Source: Shigella phage vB_SboM_Phaginator
Length of the DNA stretch: 64,000 nucleotides
Reading direction: 5' to 3' (one strand)
Sequence record: OL615012
The translations under genes and the position numbers were made by a program. Shown here one piece after another: positions 3,059 through 40,834 of the stretch. Under the pieces are notes generated by a model. It ran no database searches and had not been told where the DNA came from. It was given only the letters and a program-made list of their open reading frames with translations. Numbering within the stretch: position 1 is the stretch's first letter; every line of letters begins with the position of its first letter.

Positions 3059-4259
3059 ATTTTGTAATAATGTCAAACTGTTCTTTAAAGCAGAAGCTTG
3101 AATCTTGGTGCTGATACAAAAATTCATATGCTTTTTCTCGCTCACGGTCATAAAGAGCTCGGTCAGATGACAGTTCTTTAATACGCTCAAATGTTGATTC
3201 CATGTCATTTTCATCAAACCAAATGATACCGCTATCATGAGAAATTAACGGAGTATTATCAACACGGAATTTTAAATTTTCGCCAGTAGATTTCCAAAAT
3301 ACCGGAATTGTTCCGCATGCACCAAGCTCGAGATGAGTATATTCTAAAGAACGTTGTAAATATTTTTTGTCCAACTTACTCAGTTGATAACCAAATCCGG
3401 ATTTACTCATGCGTTCAAGCATTTCGCTATTTACATAACGGTCAAGAATTTGCGTTGGCAAATTAGGAGCAATTTTAATTTGGTCTACTTGATGAAGACG
3501 ATAATACTCGTATGGAATTCCTTTTTCTTTAATGGGAATGAACGCTGGAGAACGTTCCAGACCTTCCATAATAGTACTTAGTCCTGCAGGTTTAAGATGT
3601 TTTTCGTGAAAATCAAACATCTGATAAAAGCCTTTCCATGTAGTAGTACGACCAATCCAACGGTTGATATTCATGTTAATTTCAGAAACATCTTTCCAGT
3701 AGGTTGATCGAACTTTCGCAATATCCATAGGAGGCTGAAAGTTATATACGGTCGGTGCTTCTTCAATATCATCAAACAGAGAAACAGTTTCTGGATACCA
3801 TTCTTTCATCAGAACTTTATTAAAATCACCATTATCAGAATGGCTAAAAATAACATCAGCTCGACGAACAGTTTCTTCTAATCCCAAATTTCGACGCAAA
3901 GAAAGAGAAGAATGGTCATGCTGATAAACTACAACACGAACAGAAGGTTTAATGTTATCAATAATTTTTTTATAGTTATTAATAGTGTCTTCTTCAACAG
4001 AAGTAGCAGGAACTGAATTGATAATTAGAATATCACAATCATTTACCAGCTTAAGTGTTTTATCGTATTCTTTTGCCAATAAAACTGGAATTGAAAATGA
4101 CTTATAATCATGCGCGCAATTACGAGTAAATGATTTATCTTTAGCATAAACCAAAGTTACTTCATGACCATTTTTAATAAACCAATCACGTTGCTCGAGT
4201 GAGAATTTTGTTACACCACAACCTTCAAGACCTCGAGCCATAAAAATACATACTTTCAT
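3057..4259 (-). CDS. a-gt: Alpha-glucosyltransferase (glucosylates hydroxymethylcytosine DNA)
   Basis: 400 aa, same length and position as T4 a-gt; recalled sequence match. Confidence 0.88.
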   Translation of the reverse strand: MKVCIFMARGLEGCGVTKFSLEQRDWFIKNGHEVTLVYAKDKSFTRNCAHDYKSFSIPVLLAKEYDKTLKLVNDCDILIINSVPATSVEEDTINNYKKIIDNIKPSVRVVVYQHDHSSLSLRRNLGLEETVRRADVIFSHSDNGDFNKVLMKEWYPETVSLFDDIEEAPTVYNFQPPMDIAKVRSTYWKDVSEINMNINRWIGRTTTWKGFYQMFDFHEKHLKPAGLSTIMEGLERSPAFIPIKEKGIPYEYYRLHQVDQIKIAPNLPTQILDRYVNSEMLERMSKSGFGYQLSKLDKKYLQRSLEYTHLELGACGTIPVFWKSTGENLKFRVDNTPLISHDSGIIWFDENDMESTFERIKELSSDRALYDREREKAYEFLYQHQDSSFCFKEQFDIITK

Positions 4260-26020: not shown

Positions 26021-26364
26021 CTAGTACTCAATCCTCGATTATAAGAATCTACCAAACGGTCAACCATTGAATGACAAGCGGCTTTATCTTTCTCCTCCGC
26101 AACTGAACATTCTAAGGTATTCCACTTTTTAGCATATCGTTTTAATAATGTATCGTTTTTGTATCTGCTTGATTTATCTCTTTCTCCGTCTTTATATGCA
26201 TATATTAATTTCTGTGCAAATTCAGCTTGGCATGCTTTATTTTTCCCACAATAATCTGCCGCAGTGCGGTTTACATATTCTCTAATTTCAGTATATGATG
26301 TATCTGCTGACGCAGAAGCAGAAAATGAAATTAATCCTATACATAAAACCAAAATTTTAGTCAT
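26017..26364 (-). CDS. Hypothetical secreted protein
   Basis: 115 aa with N-terminal signal peptide MTKILVLCIGLISFSASASA. Confidence 0.5.
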   Translation of the reverse strand: MTKILVLCIGLISFSASASADTSYTEIREYVNRTAADYCGKNKACQAEFAQKLIYAYKDGERDKSSRYKNDTLLKRYAKKWNTLECSVAEEKDKAACHSMVDRLVDSYNRGLSTR

Positions 26365-26902
26365 TTACTATTTCCAAAAGTTTATTATTTTTAAGGTAAT
26401 TAGCCTTTTCTAGGACTTCAGAAGCATATTTAGAACCAGCTTTAACATTCCATCCCGAATTATAAGAGGATATTGCTTTTCTTATATCGCCCTTATGTAT
26501 ATTTAACCAATAAGAAAGTTCAATGTACGCCCAGGAAGCTGAATTGGATCGTTTATTCAACATTCTTTTTATTTCAGCATCGGTCATATTATAACCAAGT
26601 TCCTTAACTCTTGCTCGCATAGTAGGCAAATAATTTTGGAACATTCCGTAGGCGTGATGCTTTGGTTTAGATTTTAAATTAACTCCGCCAGAGCTTTCTT
26701 GCCATAAAATAGCAGCCATTATATGACCTAATCCGCTCTTGTGGATATTTTTGTGTGTTTTATATTTTCCATCCTTAGAAAATTGTTCCCCGAATTGATA
26801 CGCGTAACGCATGTTATCGAGTTGGACATTACTGAAAGTATGCTCGGAGCTATGTGCCATCATTGAAATGGCCAATAGACCAGCGAGTAGTGCTTTTCTC
26901 AT
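26357..26902 (-). CDS. Putative lytic transglycosylase-like periplasmic protein (vs.1-like)
   Basis: 181 aa; signal peptide plus ...LWQESSGG... motif typical of SLT-domain catalytic Glu region. Confidence 0.55.
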   Translation of the reverse strand: MRKALLAGLLAISMMAHSSEHTFSNVQLDNMRYAYQFGEQFSKDGKYKTHKNIHKSGLGHIMAAILWQESSGGVNLKSKPKHHAYGMFQNYLPTMRARVKELGYNMTDAEIKRMLNKRSNSASWAYIELSYWLNIHKGDIRKAISSYNSGWNVKAGSKYASEVLEKANYLKNNKLLEIVND

Positions 26903-26909
26903 GCTTACC

Positions 26910-27371
26910 TCATTGAGTTTTAATTACTGCTTTAGAAGCCTTTCCTGGTAAACGACGACTGTTGATAATTGCCATCCTACATTGAAGTGACGGGTCTTTG
27001 AACTTCTCATTAGGCTTACAAACTGTAAATCCAAGCCAAAGATTTCCATCTGTGATTTCTAAACGTCCAGGACGATATTCAACCCCATCAATAAAATCCT
27101 CGTCAATGTCAGGACGCGGAGGCATACTCAGGAATTCATTAACTTCTAAAACATGGTCTTTTATTTTATGGAATAATTCAAAAACATATGTCTCATCAAT
27201 CTCCCGTTGAATTGCACGATCAAGAAGATGTTGAGAATATTTTAGATGAAACGATGAGACCCCTGCTGCTTTTGATGCCTCACGAATCTCATTGTTAATT
27301 TGACGAAACTCCGACTCAAAGTGACGACGAAGCTTATTTCGACGGATAAAAACTTCTGTGTTGATAGTCAT
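26910..27371 (-). CDS. regB: Endoribonuclease RegB
   Basis: 153 aa, same length as T4 RegB; recalled sequence match; early promoter directly upstream. Confidence 0.75.
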   Translation of the reverse strand: MTINTEVFIRRNKLRRHFESEFRQINNEIREASKAAGVSSFHLKYSQHLLDRAIQREIDETYVFELFHKIKDHVLEVNEFLSMPPRPDIDEDFIDGVEYRPGRLEITDGNLWLGFTVCKPNEKFKDPSLQCRMAIINSRRLPGKASKAVIKTQ

Positions 27372-27398
27372 GTTATTCTCCTCTTAACTGATAGAAAA

Positions 27399-27427
27399 AT
27401 TATACCACAGTCAAGAGGAAAAGTAAA
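27399..27427 (-). promoter_or_regulatory. Early promoter upstream of regB
   Basis: Minus strand GTTTACT - 17 bp - TGgTATAAT. Confidence 0.6.
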
Positions 27428-27430
27428 CAA

Positions 27431-27751
27431 TTATTCTTTAAATCTAATCAATTTATTCATAGACTTTGAAACTTCTGCACGAACCTCATGTAGGTTTTTA
27501 AGCTGTTCAAGACGCTGCTCATAGTAAGCAATTTCATCTTCTTCGAGACAGTCCTGCGAATCTTCTTTAAGATAACGTGCATAGTCCTGGAAAGCTTTAC
27601 GGACTACTTCCTGGAAGTCATCAAGACTTTGAATTTTCTTAGGAGCAACAGATACACGACGAGGGGCAGTATAATACTCATAACCAAACCCTGCGCTTAA
27701 TTGAGCCATTAATATTTTTCCTCTGGTTGGAACACAGCACGACAAGCCCAC
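27431..27751 (-). CDS. Hypothetical protein (vs.3-vs.5 region)
   Basis: Track ORF 106 aa; probable start at internal [10 protein letters not shown] giving 92 aa. Confidence 0.45.
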
Positions 27752-28011
27752 ATACTGGCTTCTTTGAGTTTCGTTTTAGCAATAGTTAACTGATCGAGGC
27801 TTTCAGCATAATTCTTCGCGAATTCACAGTCTTCACAATTATCTAGTGCTTCCCAGAATTCATCATATAAAGCGTCAAAGATAAGTCCTAAACGAACTTC
27901 AGCGTCTTTGATAGCATTCACTTTACCGATTTTCTCTTCAGTATGTGGCTTATAACCCTTAATATCTTCAATCATATTTGACTTCCTCACCAGTACATAA
28001 ATCATATTCAA
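27709..28011 (-). CDS. Hypothetical protein at the vs.4 position (possible Acb2-like cyclic-nucleotide sponge)
   Basis: Track ORF 100 aa; second small ORF after regB, where T4 vs.4 lies; assignment by position only. Confidence 0.4.
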
Positions 28012-28189
28012 CTAAACGAATAGGTTCATGAATGCCATATCCTTGAACAGAAATTTCTGTCGTAGGATAAATTCCATCAATATCACCCATATTCCATGCT
28101 TCATTAAATTGTTGTTCGCCTGAATTACTAAACCATTCGGCGAAAGCATTTAGCACATCTTTAGAACCTTCAATAATTATCTTTGCCAT
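27968..28189 (-). CDS. Hypothetical protein
   Basis: ORF track 73 aa. Confidence 0.4.
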   Translation of the reverse strand: MAKIIIEGSKDVLNAFAEWFSNSGEQQFNEAWNMGDIDGIYPTTEISVQGYGIHEPIRLVEYDLCTGEEVKYD

Positions 28190-28551
28190 TACAAACTCTC
28201 AGTAAAGGTACGAGCGATAACGTCGCGCTGCTGTTCCGGAGTCAGAGAGTTAAAGCGAACTGCATAACCGGATACACGGATGGTCAGCTGCGGATATTTT
28301 TCCGGATGCTTAACTGCATCTTCCAGAGTTTCGCGACGCAGAACGTTAACGTTCAGGTGTTGACCACCTTCAATTTTAACTGTAGGCTGTGGTTCAATTT
28401 CAATTTCACGGGCATGCAAACCGTAGAAAATTTCTGGGTCTACAAAAGAGTCCTCTTTAAAGGTTTTAGAGACAATAATTCGTGCTTGAATACCATCTTC
28501 AAAATAAATAGTACCTTTGTGTGTGCCTTCAAGAATTTGATATGCTTTCAT
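28189..28551 (-). CDS. Autonomous glycyl-radical cofactor (GrcA/YfiD-like)
   Basis: 120 aa; C-terminal half ...[63 protein letters not shown] matches the E. coli GrcA glycyl-radical domain incl. RVSGY. Confidence 0.85.
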
Positions 28552-28558
28552 ATAAACC

Positions 28559-28939
28559 TCAATTAGAAAATAAATTTATCCAAGATTGTTCTTTAATTAA
28601 AAATGGCTCAGAATCATATGCCATTAAACTCTGTGTGATTAGTCCTTTAAAAGGCCCATCAATAAATTCCATGGTAAAATATGGAATTTTATTCATTAAC
28701 CGTGCATTAGGAGCCGTACACAAAACTCTGCATCCTTTGAATACGCCTTTTTGTAATTTGTATTGCTTGGGATAAAATTCGCTCAAAATGTTATTATTTG
28801 CTAAAATTTCAAAATGATTCACCAATTTATTTTTAATAGTTTTTGGCGAAAAATAAAGATATTCGAAAAGCTGAGTGTCTGTCATCATTGCATTCCGATT
28901 ATGAAAAACTGTGGACGAGTAATACCACCAATGCAGCAT
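28559..28939 (-). CDS. Hypothetical protein
   Basis: ORF track 126 aa. Confidence 0.45.
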
Positions 28940-29475
28940 TTACTATTGCAACAGTGGTGCACAGTTTCAATATGAATATCGTAAATTTTATCCATATCAG
29001 GAGATTTAACAGGCTCATCGATTATATACAAAATCCGCGAAAGCGATAAACCTCTGAACTTGCTACCTCTATTACCAACAAAACTACGGACAGAAACAGT
29101 AAATAAACGGAATCGAATATCATCATTAGAATAGCGTGAAAATTCTTTTTTAATGTGGCCCGCAGAAATTTTAGCGTAAGCTGAAGTATTAGAAAGAACA
29201 ATAACTGTTCCACCGTCATACAACCAATTAGCGGCAAAATTAGTTACTGCAGTTGATTTACCGGATTGACGTCCACCATCTAGTCGAAGTGTGCAGTATT
29301 CTTTAAATAAATGTGGCGAATCAGGTACATAAAATCCACTATTACAAATTTCTTCTACTCTAGCATCAGAATGGTGTGTAAAAGCATTCATCAGGGATAG
29401 ATAAGGACCAGTTAAAAATGTTCTCATTTTATTCTCTCTAAATTTGGGCCATTCCATGGCGCGTGAATTGTCCAT
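28885..29475 (-). CDS. Small P-loop NTPase, function unknown
   Basis: 196 aa; Walker A GGRQSGKST and Walker B-like ILYIIDEP; Cys cluster CCNSKCC. Confidence 0.55.
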   Translation of the reverse strand: MDNSRAMEWPKFRENKMRTFLTGPYLSLMNAFTHHSDARVEEICNSGFYVPDSPHLFKEYCTLRLDGGRQSGKSTAVTNFAANWLYDGGTVIVLSNTSAYAKISAGHIKKEFSRYSNDDIRFRLFTVSVRSFVGNRGSKFRGLSLSRILYIIDEPVKSPDMDKIYDIHIETVHHCCNSKCCIGGITRPQFFIIGMQ

Positions 29476-29593
29476 TTCTGTATTTACCCATTACCGCACT
29501 TGGGCTCGACCTTATTACAGGTTGGCTGGAATCCCTCACAGAATCATGAGGTCCAGCTTGTTCCCATTTTATTTGAATGTAAATAGATCTGAG

Positions 29594-30172
29594 TTAGGAA
29601 TTACGGGCTGCATTAGCAACGGCGTAAGCGTACTGGACATTAGCGTCTTTAAACGTACCTTTAGAGGTATCTATTTCTGCCTTAAAGCCGCCTTTAGCCA
29701 TAACATCGGCAAATTCTTTACGGAAAGCCATTGCATCAAGACCTTTCCATGATGATTTATGCTTGGCAAATTCAAGACCAGCGTAGTTGACAGCCTTAGC
29801 TAATTTATTATCAATAACCCATTTACCGGCTTTAGGCACAAACTTCGGGCCTTTTTGTTTAGAGAACAGTTTTAAATTCCAGCGACGAAGGTCACTGTCG
29901 GCTTTAACAAAAGCTGCGTCTAAGTTACTAGCAACAACATCTTCAATATGAGCAAATTTAAGTCCGTCAACTTCAATATTTAGATCGTTACGCCAGCGAA
30001 GTCCTTCCCAAGCGAAGGCTTTAAAGTCGGAAGCCTTTGTAGCTAAGTACCGTTCAATAGGAGCTGTTTTAGGGTCAAAGCCGTTTCCCGATCGGTAGGT
30101 CCACTCATCTTTATTAATGCCTTTGGCCTTTACTATAGAAGCTTCGGCAATAAATTCTTGATAGGTTTTCAT
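29594..30172 (-). CDS. ipIII: Internal head protein with capsid targeting sequence (IPIII-like)
   Basis: 192 aa; N-terminus MKTYQEFIAEA, the T4 internal-protein capsid targeting sequence with LxE-type protease site; early promoter upstream. Confidence 0.65.
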   Translation of the reverse strand: MKTYQEFIAEASIVKAKGINKDEWTYRSGNGFDPKTAPIERYLATKASDFKAFAWEGLRWRNDLNIEVDGLKFAHIEDVVASNLDAAFVKADSDLRRWNLKLFSKQKGPKFVPKAGKWVIDNKLAKAVNYAGLEFAKHKSSWKGLDAMAFRKEFADVMAKGGFKAEIDTSKGTFKDANVQYAYAVANAARNS

Positions 30173-30200
30173 GTGTTTCCTTGTTTGTTTTGATAGAGTA

Positions 30201-30229
30201 ATTATACCATATTAATACTTAAGCGTAAA
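30201..30229 (-). promoter_or_regulatory. Early promoter upstream of ipIII-like gene
   Basis: Minus strand GTTTACG - 17 bp - TGgTATAAT. Confidence 0.6.
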
Positions 30230-30233
30230 CCGT

Positions 30234-30494
30234 TTAAGCTTTACCGCCAGAAATAATTCCGAAGTTGTTAAAATCATATCCAATATCGTCAACATCTACT
30301 TTAGGACTTGCTACAGCATAAGCAATTTCACTACGTTTTGCACAGGTGTTGATTTCTTTACCATCGCCACCTAAGAAAGAATACCCATTACGTTTTAATG
30401 AGCCAAAGTCTTCCGCATCACCAATGAAAGCTTTAACTTTAAATTTAGAACCTTTGGCATCTGCTTCAACGATAAATTCTTGATACATTTTCAT
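30234..30494 (-). CDS. Internal head protein with capsid targeting sequence (IPII-position)
   Basis: 86 aa; N-terminus MKMYQEFIVEA. Confidence 0.6.
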   Translation of the reverse strand: MKMYQEFIVEADAKGSKFKVKAFIGDAEDFGSLKRNGYSFLGGDGKEINTCAKRSEIAYAVASPKVDVDDIGYDFNNFGIISGGKA

Positions 30495-30631
30495 TTTTCC
30501 TTAGTAAATTGATTTACCAAAGTATTTGTACCAAGTCGGACGTTGATCAATTTTTTCATCTAAGCGTGCTTGATTTATCGCAATGGACGCTTCGGACGGG
30601 TCATAATTTCCTCCAAGTAGTTGATGAATGT

Positions 30632-30662: not shown

Positions 30663-31465
<803 letters not shown>

Positions 31466-36446: not shown

Positions 36447-36482
36447 CTTATTTCCTGTTTTAATTCGTGGTTTTAATATACT

Positions 36483-36490
36483 TATTTATA
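36483..36490 (-). promoter_or_regulatory. Late promoter (TATAAATA) upstream of IP-like gene 35973..36446
   Basis: Minus-strand TATAAATA immediately after terminator hairpin; RBS AGGAAA and ATG follow. Confidence 0.6.
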
Positions 36491-36520
36491 CTAAAAAGCC
36501 CCAACCTTTCGGTCGGGGCT
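36491..36520 (-). terminator. Rho-independent terminator at end of tRNA/stable RNA cluster (repeat copy B)
   Basis: Minus strand AGCCCCGAC-CGAAAGG-UUGGGGCU followed by UUUUUAG, then TATAAATA. Confidence 0.65.
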
Positions 36521-36525
36521 AAGCC
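36491..36525 (-). repeat. 31-bp direct repeat copy B (terminator-containing)
   Basis: ctaaaaagccccaacctttcGgtcggggctaa; 554 bp from copy A, bracketing IP-like gene 35973..36446. Confidence 0.8.
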
Positions 36526-36526
36526 T

Positions 36527-36836
36527 TGCGGCAACCTTGTCGGGGTTCCACCTGCTAAGGCAAGTGTTTGTACGAAACGCCGGGATTCGAACCCGGTTAT
36601 TAAGCAGTTGACGCTACTCAATATTTTTAAAAGGCCATATCTCGACCATATCCGAACGTTCCGTCAAAAACGCTACTCGGTTTACGGCAAAGATATTTCC
36701 TCGAATCGATAATTCGATGCGCCGTTTCTGCTGTGATGTAAGGGGGCATTAACCGATCGTAAAGATTTGTTAATGCCAGTCCTTACCCAGGGAACATCAG
36801 TCCGACGACTTGCCGGTAGCGACCCGGCTTCTTGTC
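36527..36836 (-). ncRNA. Small stable RNA region (T4 rnaC/rnaD-like), incl. a tRNA-like acceptor/T-arm module at about 36572-36663 without an anticodon arm
   Basis: T-arm CCGGG-TTCGAAT-CCCGG and pairing acceptor strands but no canonical D/anticodon arms; lies between tRNA-Arg and a terminator, as the species 1/2 RNAs do in T4. Confidence 0.4.
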
Positions 36837-36912
36837 TGGTCGAGGCAGTAGGGATCGAACCTACGACCTAGGACTTAGAAGGTCCTTGCTCTTCCTTCTG
36901 AGCTATGCCTCG
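36837..36912 (-). tRNA. tRNA-Arg (anticodon TCT)
   Basis: Manual cloverleaf: acceptor CGAGGCA/TGCCTCG, anticodon loop CTTCTAA, T-arm GTAGG-TTCGATC-CCTAC, encoded CCA. Confidence 0.8.
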
Positions 36913-36916
36913 TATT

Positions 36917-36991
36917 TGGCGGACGTGATAGGATTCGAACCTATAACCAATCGCTTAACAGGCGATCGCTCTGCCATTGAGCTACACATCC
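36917..36991 (-). tRNA. tRNA-Asn (anticodon GTT)
   Basis: Manual cloverleaf: acceptor GGATGTG/CACGTCC (one G-U), anticodon stem ATCGC/GCGAT, loop CTGTTAA, T-arm ATAGG-TTCGAAT-CCTAT, encoded CCA. Confidence 0.7.
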
Positions 36992-36995
36992 AAAT

Positions 36996-37082
36996 TGGTG
37001 GGGAGTGATGGAGTCGAACCACCCGAGTCGCAATGACAATGGATTTACAGTCCACACCGCTACCTCTACGGGATAACTCCCC
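36996..37082 (-). tRNA. tRNA-Tyr (anticodon GTA), long variable arm
   Basis: Manual cloverleaf: acceptor GGGGAGT/ACTCCCC, anticodon loop CTGTAAA, variable stem-loop, T-arm GGTGG-TTCGACT-CCATC, encoded CCA. Confidence 0.7.
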
Positions 37083-37094
37083 TAATTCATAATT

Positions 37095-37169
37095 TGGTGG
37101 CCCTGGGTGGAATTGAACCACCATCTGGCGATTATGAGTCGCTTGCTTGAACCTTCCAGCTACAGGGCC
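37095..37169 (-). tRNA. tRNA with CAT anticodon (Ile2-type or elongator Met)
   Basis: Manual cloverleaf: acceptor GGCCCTG/CAGGGCC, anticodon loop CTCATAA, T-arm GGTGG-TTCAATT-CCACC, encoded CCA. Confidence 0.7.
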
Positions 37170-37170
37170 T

Positions 37171-37246
37171 TGGTGCTGATTGACGGAATCGAACCGCCGA
37201 CCTTCTCATTACAAGTGAGTTGCTCTACCTACTGAGCTAAATCAGC
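37171..37246 (-). tRNA. tRNA-Thr (anticodon TGT)
   Basis: Manual cloverleaf: acceptor GCTGATT/AATCAGC, D-arm GCTC...GAGC, anticodon loop CTTGTAA, T-arm GGCGG-TTCGATT-CCGTC, encoded CCA. Confidence 0.8.
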
Positions 37247-37251
37247 AAAAC

Positions 37252-37341
37252 TGGCGGAGGCGATAGGATTTGAACCTATGAGTCGCCGGAGCGACTGCCG
37301 GTTTTCAAGACCGGTGCATTAAACCACTCTGCCACGCCTCC
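37252..37341 (-). tRNA. tRNA-Ser (anticodon TGA), long variable arm
   Basis: Manual cloverleaf: acceptor GGAGGCG/CGCCTCC, anticodon stem CCGGT/ACCGG, loop CTTGAAA, T-arm ATAGG-TTCAAAT-CCTAT, encoded CCA. Confidence 0.8.
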
Positions 37342-37345
37342 AAAT

Positions 37346-37353
37346 ATTTATAT
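37346..37353 (-). promoter_or_regulatory. Late promoter (TATAAATA) abutting tRNA-Ser
   Basis: Minus-strand TATAAATA; predicted start falls at or next to the tRNA-Ser 5-prime end (37341); overlaps segB stop. Confidence 0.5.
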
Positions 37354-37998
37354 ATTGTTAATTTGATTTAGAATTCTTTTTGCTTGAGTATGACTTACGC
37401 CAATATGCTTAGCATATTTAGACAATTCGCCACGTTTAGAAAAATCATATAATTTAGAAATTTCTATTCTTCTTTTTCTTTCATCCGCAGAAACTTTTGC
37501 TTCGTTTGCTTTTGCTATTTTACGTTTAGCTTCTTGAGAATGAGTTTTACCAGCAAAGCCATTCTTCATTAATCCATTTGAAGACCATCCTTTTAATTTT
37601 CCGTTAGAATGTGCCTTTTTAACACCCAATGAAATTAATTCGCGTTGCTGATCTGTCATAGGATAATTATTTATATGATCCCATCCACCTTCACCTCCAA
37701 GTTTTAAATTATACACATCTGGTCTATTTAAAAACTCTTCTGTGACAATATTTTTCTCGGCTTCAAGCATAGATTCTTTATCGTCAAAATACTCTAATAT
37801 TTCTTTAGAAAAATTTTCTATACCATATTTATCTTGGGCTCTTTTTAATAATTTACCAGAACCCATATATCCATCATCTAAATTTTCGGTAGAATGCACA
37901 CCAATATAAATTTTATTATTAATTTTATTTGTTATTTTATAAAGATAAAAATGCATATCAGTCCCTAATAAAGAACTGAGCGTCTCACGACGAGTCAT
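37348..37998 (-). CDS. segB: GIY-YIG homing endonuclease (SegB-like) embedded in the tRNA cluster
   Basis: 216 aa; N-terminal FYLYKITNKINNKIYIGVHS (GIY-YIG-type motif); sits between two tRNA subclusters as segB does in T4. Confidence 0.8.
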   Translation of the reverse strand: MTRRETLSSLLGTDMHFYLYKITNKINNKIYIGVHSTENLDDGYMGSGKLLKRAQDKYGIENFSKEILEYFDDKESMLEAEKNIVTEEFLNRPDVYNLKLGGEGGWDHINNYPMTDQQRELISLGVKKAHSNGKLKGWSSNGLMKNGFAGKTHSQEAKRKIAKANEAKVSADERKRRIEISKLYDFSKRGELSKYAKHIGVSHTQAKRILNQINNI

Positions 37999-38002
37999 AA
38001 AT

Positions 38003-38076
<74 letters not shown>

Positions 38077-38081
38077 AAATT

Positions 38082-38168
38082 TGGTGCGAGAAGTGGGACT
38101 CGAACCCACAAGGAAATCATTCCGCAGCATTTTAAGTGCTGTGCCTTTACCAATTTGACCATTCTCGC
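38082..38168 (-). tRNA. tRNA-Leu (anticodon TAA), long variable arm
   Basis: Manual cloverleaf: acceptor GCGAGAA/TTCTCGC, anticodon stem CAGCA/TGCTG, loop CTTAAAA, T-arm GTGGG-TTCGAGT-CCCAC, encoded CCA. Confidence 0.8.
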
Positions 38169-38169
38169 G

Positions 38170-38242
38170 CTGGGAATAAAGGACTCGAACCTTTGCATCC
38201 TGGAATCAAAATCCAGTGCCTTACCAACTTGGCTAATTCCCA
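38170..38242 (-). tRNA. tRNA-Gln (anticodon TTG), CCA not encoded
   Basis: Manual cloverleaf: acceptor TGGGAAT/ATTCCCA, anticodon stem CTGGA/TCCAG, loop TTTTGAT, T-arm AAAGG-TTCGAGT-CCTTT; 1-nt spacer to tRNA-Leu (dimeric precursor as in T4 Gln-Leu). Confidence 0.8.
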
Positions 38243-38311
38243 ATTATTAACAAAGGCTCTCAAGCAAGAACCCTTGATGATAGAGGGTATTAATCAGTGC
38301 GGTATGAGTTA

Positions 38312-40137: not shown

Positions 40138-40834
<697 letters not shown>

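Follow-up and report, generated by a model that had tools for sequence, protein, structure and literature searches.

The product of phage T4 vs.4, Acb2 (anti-CBASS 2), is the closest described relative of one of the proteins studied here. As set out in PMC10449767, which summarises Jenson et al., it is a cyclic-nucleotide sponge that forms a hexamer with three cGAMP molecules and antagonises type II CBASS. The affinity of T4-Acb2 for 3',3'-cGAMP corresponds to a KD of about 84 nM, and cA3 and cAAG are not bound, since Y37, A57, L60, D61 and T64 narrow its second pocket; a D61R mutant still fails to bind cA3 (PMC10312549). Mutants of PaMx33 Acb2, including those at Y11 and K26, are listed in the same report. 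[quoted passage not shown] T4 likewise carries Acb1, which degrades cyclic nucleotide signals rather than sequestering them (PMC10312549).

The T4 vs.3 product was described as TadIV-1, an N7-cADPR sponge (KD about 216 nM) directed against type IV Thoeris (Chen et al., Nat Commun 2026, PMC13243611). According to that report, deletion of vs.3 sensitises T4 to type IV Thoeris, and residues R17, R18 and K24 of the T4 protein matter. Activity was found in long homologues only (>80 aa; about 90 aa or more), for which a flexible N-terminal extension is needed, and T4 Vs.3 and all long-form homologues tested there bound N7-cADPR and inhibited type IV Thoeris (PMC13243611). [quoted passage not shown]

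Here we analysed positions 27431-28189 of a 64,000-nucleotide stretch of Shigella phage vB_SboM_Phaginator (sequence record OL615012), referred to below as the window. We are nearly certain that this interval consists of three translationally coupled Tequatrovirus genes running toward regB, which encode Acb2, TadIV-1 and the conserved small protein Vs.5. The analysis established orthology, sequence identity, the retention of published functional residues, gene order and gene overlaps.

Organization of the locus

A megablast search with positions 26300-28600 of the window matched 821 phage records and placed the region in Tequatrovirus, with nucleotide identities of 99.3% to Kha5h, 98.7% to AR1 and 98.4% to T4. 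In the ORF list of the window, 27431-28189 is exactly filled by three minus-strand ORFs, confirming an earlier note, made from the sequence alone, that three small ORFs lie beside regB. The same note had placed them at the position of T4 vs.3-vs.5, and this also holds, since the ORFs are collinear with T4 vs.5, vs.4 and vs.3 in length, order and overlaps. Thus, vs.5 occupies 27968-28189 (minus strand; 222 nt, 73 aa), vs.4 (acb2) 27709-27975 (minus strand; 267 nt, 88 aa) and vs.3 (tadIV-1) 27431-27709 (minus strand; 279 nt, 92 aa), each with the length of its T4 counterpart.

The ORF caller began two of these genes further upstream, giving 27709-28011 for vs.4 (100 aa from a TTG) and 27431-27751 for vs.3 (106 aa from a GTG, the ATG lying at 27709). 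For vs.4, GGTGAGGAAG stands immediately before the ATG at 27975. This ATG is the start used in the construct of PDB 7UQ2 and coincides with the start of 'ORF 62.5 (AA 1-88)' in GenBank X04567.1, which has an annotated ribosome-binding site. Because these three sources agree on the ATG, we take 88 aa as the true Vs.4 product, and the 100-aa version was rejected as an artefact of stretching the ORF to the upstream TTG. Consequently, of the sizes given in the earlier note (92, 100 and 73 aa), the first and last stand for Vs.3 and Vs.5, whereas the second is replaced by 88 aa.

Directly upstream of vs.5 lies vs.6 (28189-28551, minus strand), which encodes a GrcA/YfiD-like autonomous glycyl-radical cofactor (PF01228 Gly_radical, E 2.8e-18; 100% amino acid identity to T4 Vs.6). 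Directly downstream of vs.3 in the direction of transcription lies regB (26910-27371, minus strand), which encodes the site-specific endoribonuclease (Pfam PF10715 REGB_T4, E 8.1e-69; 100% amino acid identity to T4 RegB) and has AAGAGGAG as its Shine-Dalgarno sequence. An SLT-domain gene (vs.1) and then vs follow regB on the same strand, giving the transcription order vs.6 > vs.5 > vs.4 > vs.3 > regB > vs.1 > vs. Being on the minus strand, vs.3-vs.5 are transcribed before regB, and the description of these ORFs as lying after regB is true of the coordinates only. The annotation of T4T lists tk.4, vs, vs.1, regB, vs.3, vs.4, vs.5, vs.6, vs.7 and vs.8, and the window equals T4T in gene lengths, overlaps and the 59-nt spacer between vs.3 and regB.

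The genes of this block overlap at each junction, by 1 nt between vs.6 and vs.5 (TAATG), by 8 nt between vs.5 and vs.4 (ATGATTGA) and by 1 nt between vs.4 and vs.3 (TAATG), and Shine-Dalgarno motifs are located 5' of vs.4 and vs.3. The overlaps from vs.6 to vs.3 are consistent with one translationally coupled transcript. By analogy with T4, vs.3-vs.5 were taken as early genes, and the expression, timing and promoter usage of the vs.6-vs.3 block were assumed to be those of T4. A consensus scan detected a sigma-70-type promoter-like site at 27399-27427 (minus strand; TTTACT-17-TATAAT, with TG before the -10 element) in the vs.3-regB spacer, while the total of promoter-like matches across the region was not above that of shuffled sequences. 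Judging from its pattern and position, the site is the likely early promoter of regB itself, and with it the dense run of genes from vs.6 to vs.3 comes to an end. Upstream of vs.8, the window gave no convincing promoter for the vs.8-vs.3 block.

Divergence from T4

Compared with T4, vs.3 differs at 6 nt and 2 aa (N38K and T64E; 97.8% amino acid identity), vs.4 at 8 nt, all synonymous, with no amino acid change, and vs.5 at 7 nt and 1 aa (E10K; 98.6% amino acid identity). The proteins encoded by regB, vs, vs.1 and vs.6 are identical to those of T4, and all three of Vs.3, Vs.4 and Vs.5 are identical between the window and Kha5h. This excess of synonymous change shows that vs.3-vs.5 are functional coding genes and not chance ORFs.

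The opposite view, that the three are accidental reading frames or degraded pseudogenes without function in this phage, could appeal to their shortness (73-92 aa) and to the non-ATG starts to which the ORF caller stretches two of the three. However, the ORF lengths equal those of T4 without any frameshift or stop, and the 21 nt differences over the three genes change only 3 aa, none of them in vs.4. Homologues were also found by tblastn in about 600-1200 phage records (606 for Vs.3, for which the UPEC07 protein served as the query, 1231 for Vs.4 and 987 for Vs.5), and vs.4 and vs.3 carry the Shine-Dalgarno motifs mentioned above. We therefore give this view practically no chance and treat vs.3-vs.5 as functional genes.

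Vs.4 and Acb2

Over its 88 aa, Vs.4 of the window shows 100% identity with T4 Vs.4 as deposited in PDB 7UQ2 (E 1.6e-57). It also matched Pfam PF24729 Acb2_Tad1_hairpin with 71.4 bits (E 7.1e-20; gathering cut-off 27), and PaMx33 Acb2 (8H2J/8IXZ 'p26') in a weak, end-to-end collinear alignment (E 0.012). The middle ORF is accordingly assigned by sequence as the orthologue of T4 vs.4 (Acb2), in line with the proposal of the earlier note that one of the ORFs sits at the vs.4 position. That note had not settled which ORF, if any, is the orthologue, and had named as the adverse outcome that none of the three would align to Acb2; in the comparison of each ORF with Vs.4 and Acb2, the middle one matched and the other two did not. 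Its statement that T4 vs.4 had been reported as Acb2, a cyclic-dinucleotide sponge, agrees with PMC10312549 and with PMC10449767.

Assigning the Acb2 orthologue to the 92-aa ORF, to the 73-aa ORF or to none of the three is a reading with a probability close to nil, and it was already ruled out by protein, PDB and Pfam comparisons of all three. Only the middle ORF matched 7UQ2, 8H2J and PF24729; the 92-aa protein matched 9WIW (TadIV-1) and not Acb2, and the 73-aa protein gave no Acb2, Pfam or PDB match.

The ligand-contact residues Y8, K23 and F82 are all present in the Vs.4 of the window, with Y8 aligned to Y11 and K23 to K26 of PaMx33 Acb2. The T4-type residues Y37, A57, L60, D61, T64 and T68 are all identical as well. 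The subtype with a cyclic-trinucleotide pocket (PaMx33/JBD67 type) was defined by equivalents of R67 and T74 and by a helix whose kink widens the cA3 pocket; Vs.4 falls outside this subtype, with D61 in place of R67 and T68 in place of T74. At 88 aa, Vs.4 fits the small (about 90 aa) helical Acb2 class, and the interlocked hexamer with three cyclic dinucleotides is crystallographic for the identical sequence (7UQ2).

For both Vs.4 and Vs.3, our statements on how they bind ligands, assemble and counter defence are inferred from published experiments with T4 proteins that are identical or 98% identical to them. Since Vs.4 is identical in sequence to T4 Acb2, the mechanism should be transferable with very high confidence. 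In this mechanism, the Vs.4 hexamer would sequester 3',3'-cGAMP and related cyclic dinucleotides from host CD-NTases, and the CBASS effector would thereby stay under the threshold for activation. By the same identity, Vs.4 should bind cyclic dinucleotides and not cyclic trinucleotides. It should also expose the phage to Panoptes-type decoy-nucleotide systems.

The window contains a homologue of acb1 (T4 57B-type) at 40138-40593 (minus strand), which matched PDB 7T26/7T27 'Acb1' with an E value of 4.1e-62 and whose translation shows two H-x-T/S motifs (HSTICY and HITLSY). The phage thus carries both anti-CBASS genes, acb2 and the acb1 homologue, 12 kb apart. As for the T4 Sequestin gene (Y16Q; PMC12265669), its 5' primer sequence is absent from the window.

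Vs.3 and TadIV-1

Vs.3 matched PDB 9WIW_A with an E value of 4.9e-38, and this was the sole solved structure matched. The 9WIW sequence is 100% identical to the product of the gene adjoining regB in UPEC07 (tblastn; GenBank MW250787.1, 1501-1806 of the extracted locus). Vs.3 of the window keeps R17, R18 and K24 and, with 92 aa, is a long form, and at both positions where it differs from T4 it carries the family-majority residue (N38K and T64E). By its sequence and by the published account of 9WIW, it is identified as the TadIV-1 orthologue in its long, active form. The role of vs.3 as a published immune-signal sponge, TadIV-1, as described in PMC13243611, was absent from the earlier note.

In an AF2 model of the Vs.3 monomer (mean pLDDT 65), residues 1-21 were disordered (pLDDT <50) and two helices spanned residues 29-53 and 57-91, a predicted topology that agrees with the published TadIV-1 architecture. 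A Foldseek search of the model against the PDB did not return 9WIW, either because the model is weak (pLDDT 65) or because the entry is newer than the library. In the proposed mechanism, the flexible N-terminal loop of a Vs.3 dimer would sequester N7-cADPR and thereby block type IV Thoeris (TIR-Caspase).

The PDB entry 9WIW bears the name 'Endoribonuclease', which was apparently inherited from the GenBank annotation of the UPEC07 vs.3 homologue. The label is therefore taken to reflect annotation (in MW250787.1 the gene is listed as 'endoribonuclease') and not function, and the available portion of PMC13243611 describes no nuclease activity of TadIV-1.

Conservation across Straboviridae

The locus was compared among T4T, Kha5h, the window, UPEC07, JS98, Roth79, COW86c and RB16. 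The three Tequatrovirus loci (T4T, Kha5h and the window) share the arrangement vs.7-vs.6-vs.5-vs.4-vs.3-regB. UPEC07 (Gaprivervirus) has vs.7-vs.5-vs.4-vs.3-regB, JS98 (Dhakavirus) vs.7-vs.5-vs.4-regB, the Klebsiella phage Roth79 vs.7-vs.5(fused)-vs.6-vs.4-regB, the Erwinia phage COW86c vs.7-vs.5-ORF-vs.4-ORF-regB, and RB16 (Pseudotevenvirus) vs.6-vs.4 only. Among these sampled Straboviridae of other groups, UPEC07, JS98, Roth79 and COW86c retain the vs.4-regB neighbourhood, and RB16 does not. Every sampled locus contains acb2, and the genes around it, vs.3, vs.5 and vs.6, are present in some loci and missing from others.

Two features of the Roth79 locus (L004) were seen alongside: a Vs.5-like domain forms the N-terminal part of a 163-aa ORF (2501-2992), and regB (3702-4159) is annotated as two ORFs, being split or frameshifted.

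Vs.5

Vs.5 belongs to PHROG 1986 (E 1.3e-43), a family without a defined function in PHROG. It is conserved and restricted to Straboviridae. A search of 1.84 billion representative proteins gave no more than 6 clusters, and the motif W19-F-S-x-S-G-E-Q26 (with N at x in the window) is strongly conserved. Searches of Pfam, NCBIfam and the PDB returned no meaningful domain or fold match, and our search of the literature on vs.5 of phage T4 found no record.

One of the 6 clusters, an 895-aa protein of FG-GAP/VCBS-type repeats (P0050), was considered as a Vs.5 homologue and rejected, its HMMER E value of 2e-12 over 7 repeats being inflated by repetition. Its repeat 'WFENNGSQSFTE' resembles 'WFSNSGEQQFNE' of Vs.5, with WF-x-N-x-G-x-Q as the common motif, and the resemblance is probably convergent or at the level of the motif rather than homologous. 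In the UPEC07 record (MW250787.1), the vs.5 homologue is labelled 'pyrimidine dimer DNA glycosylase', apparently a mislabel.

With two published sponge genes on one side of vs.5 and a variable accessory region on the other, Vs.5 could be the third anti-defence factor encoded by the cassette, acting as a signal sponge or as a modulator of Acb2, for instance by counteracting the liability towards Panoptes. Its small size (73 aa), the 8-nt overlap of its 3' end with the acb2 start and the strong conservation of its W19-Q26 motif would suit such a role. So would its position directly upstream of vs.4 in T4T, Kha5h, UPEC07 and JS98, the last two with only 47% identity. However, this adjacency is not universal, as vs.6 intervenes in Roth79 and another ORF in COW86c, and vs.5 was not found at the RB16 locus. 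Moreover, Vs.5 shows no homology or fold match to known anti-defence proteins, and when Vs.3-Vs.8 were each expressed alone, suppression of type IV Thoeris was reported for vs.3 only (PMC13243611). We regard an anti-defence role as speculative and rather unlikely, with about one chance in five, and describe Vs.5 as a conserved small Straboviridae protein. If the role were real, vs.5-vs.4-vs.3 would make up a three-gene counter-signalling module.

Other features of the window

The vs.8 region (28885-29539, minus strand) matches T4 Vs.8 in two frames, residues 1-36 in one (29539-29432) and residues 34-216 in another (29442-28888). With the match divided in this way, the intact vs.8 ORF of the window encodes 196 aa from the ATG at 29475, compared with 216 aa in T4 and 189 aa in Kha5h as annotated. 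The stretch that separates vs.8 from the lysozyme gene e (30941-31429) contains three internal-protein-like ORFs (29594-30172, 30234-30494 and 30663-30959) with N-termini of the MK(T/M)YQEF type. The same arrangement, 99% identical, occurs in 235Ecol030PP, vB_Eco-B1.1 and G8, indicating that this form of the variable IP region occurs naturally. Of denV (endonuclease V), only a remnant is left, at 30504-30629 (minus strand), corresponding to T4 residues 96-137 at 74% identity, and no intact denV ORF was found in the window.

GGAG, the RegB recognition motif, is absent from the minus strand for 3233 nt (27378-30611), the longest such gap on that strand, which ends at the GGAG-containing Shine-Dalgarno sequence of regB itself. 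Depletion of RegB sites was nevertheless rejected as not significant, as the plus strand has a gap of 3877 nt and total GGAG counts equal those of shuffled sequences.

At 37348-37998 (minus strand) lies an ORF of 216 aa whose N-terminus (YLYKITNKINNKIYIGVH...) is GIY-YIG-like, in an area (about 36450-38250) otherwise without long ORFs. We take this area to correspond roughly to the position of the T4 tRNA cluster and segB.

Comparison with known systems

The identification of vs.4 as Acb2 and of vs.3 as TadIV-1 is correct and already known, the locus showing no departure from T4. No new biology follows: the T4 Acb2 that has been crystallised and studied biochemically has the same protein sequence, and the TadIV-1 of the window shares 98% identity with the published protein. 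The adjacent Acb2 and TadIV-1, together with Acb1 at a distance of 12 kb, represent the standard T4 set against nucleotide-signalling immunity, and this T4-type set of counter-measures predicts the host range of the phage on hosts with CBASS, type IV Thoeris and Panoptes.

With T4 TadIV-1, Vs.3 of the window shares 97.8% identity, the long form, and R17, R18 and K24, and in the AF2 model also a flexible N-terminus ahead of two predicted helices; it differs by N38K and T64E. Compared with UPEC07 TadIV-1 (9WIW), it is without a 9-residue insertion of the N-terminal loop. Acb1 (T4 57B; 7T26) acts on the same CBASS pathway in the same phage as acb2, but its sequence and mechanism are unrelated to those of Acb2, and its gene lies 12 kb from vs.3-vs.5. 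PaMx33 Acb2 (8H2J and 8IXZ) shares with Vs.4 the family, the length class and the alignment of Y11 and K26 to Y8 and K23, but is distant, matching Vs.4 of the window with an E value of 0.012, and T4-Acb2 is 24.2% identical to it (PMC10312549). PaMx33 Acb2 binds cyclic trinucleotides in its second pocket, whereas T4-type Acb2 does not (PMC10312549), and nor, by its sequence, should Vs.4 of the window. With T4 Vs.4/Acb2 (7UQ2; PF24729), in contrast, the likeness extends to the sequence, the vs.5-vs.3 position upstream of regB, the overlaps and the ligand contacts, and the only difference consists of 8 synonymous nucleotides, leaving the two proteins the same.
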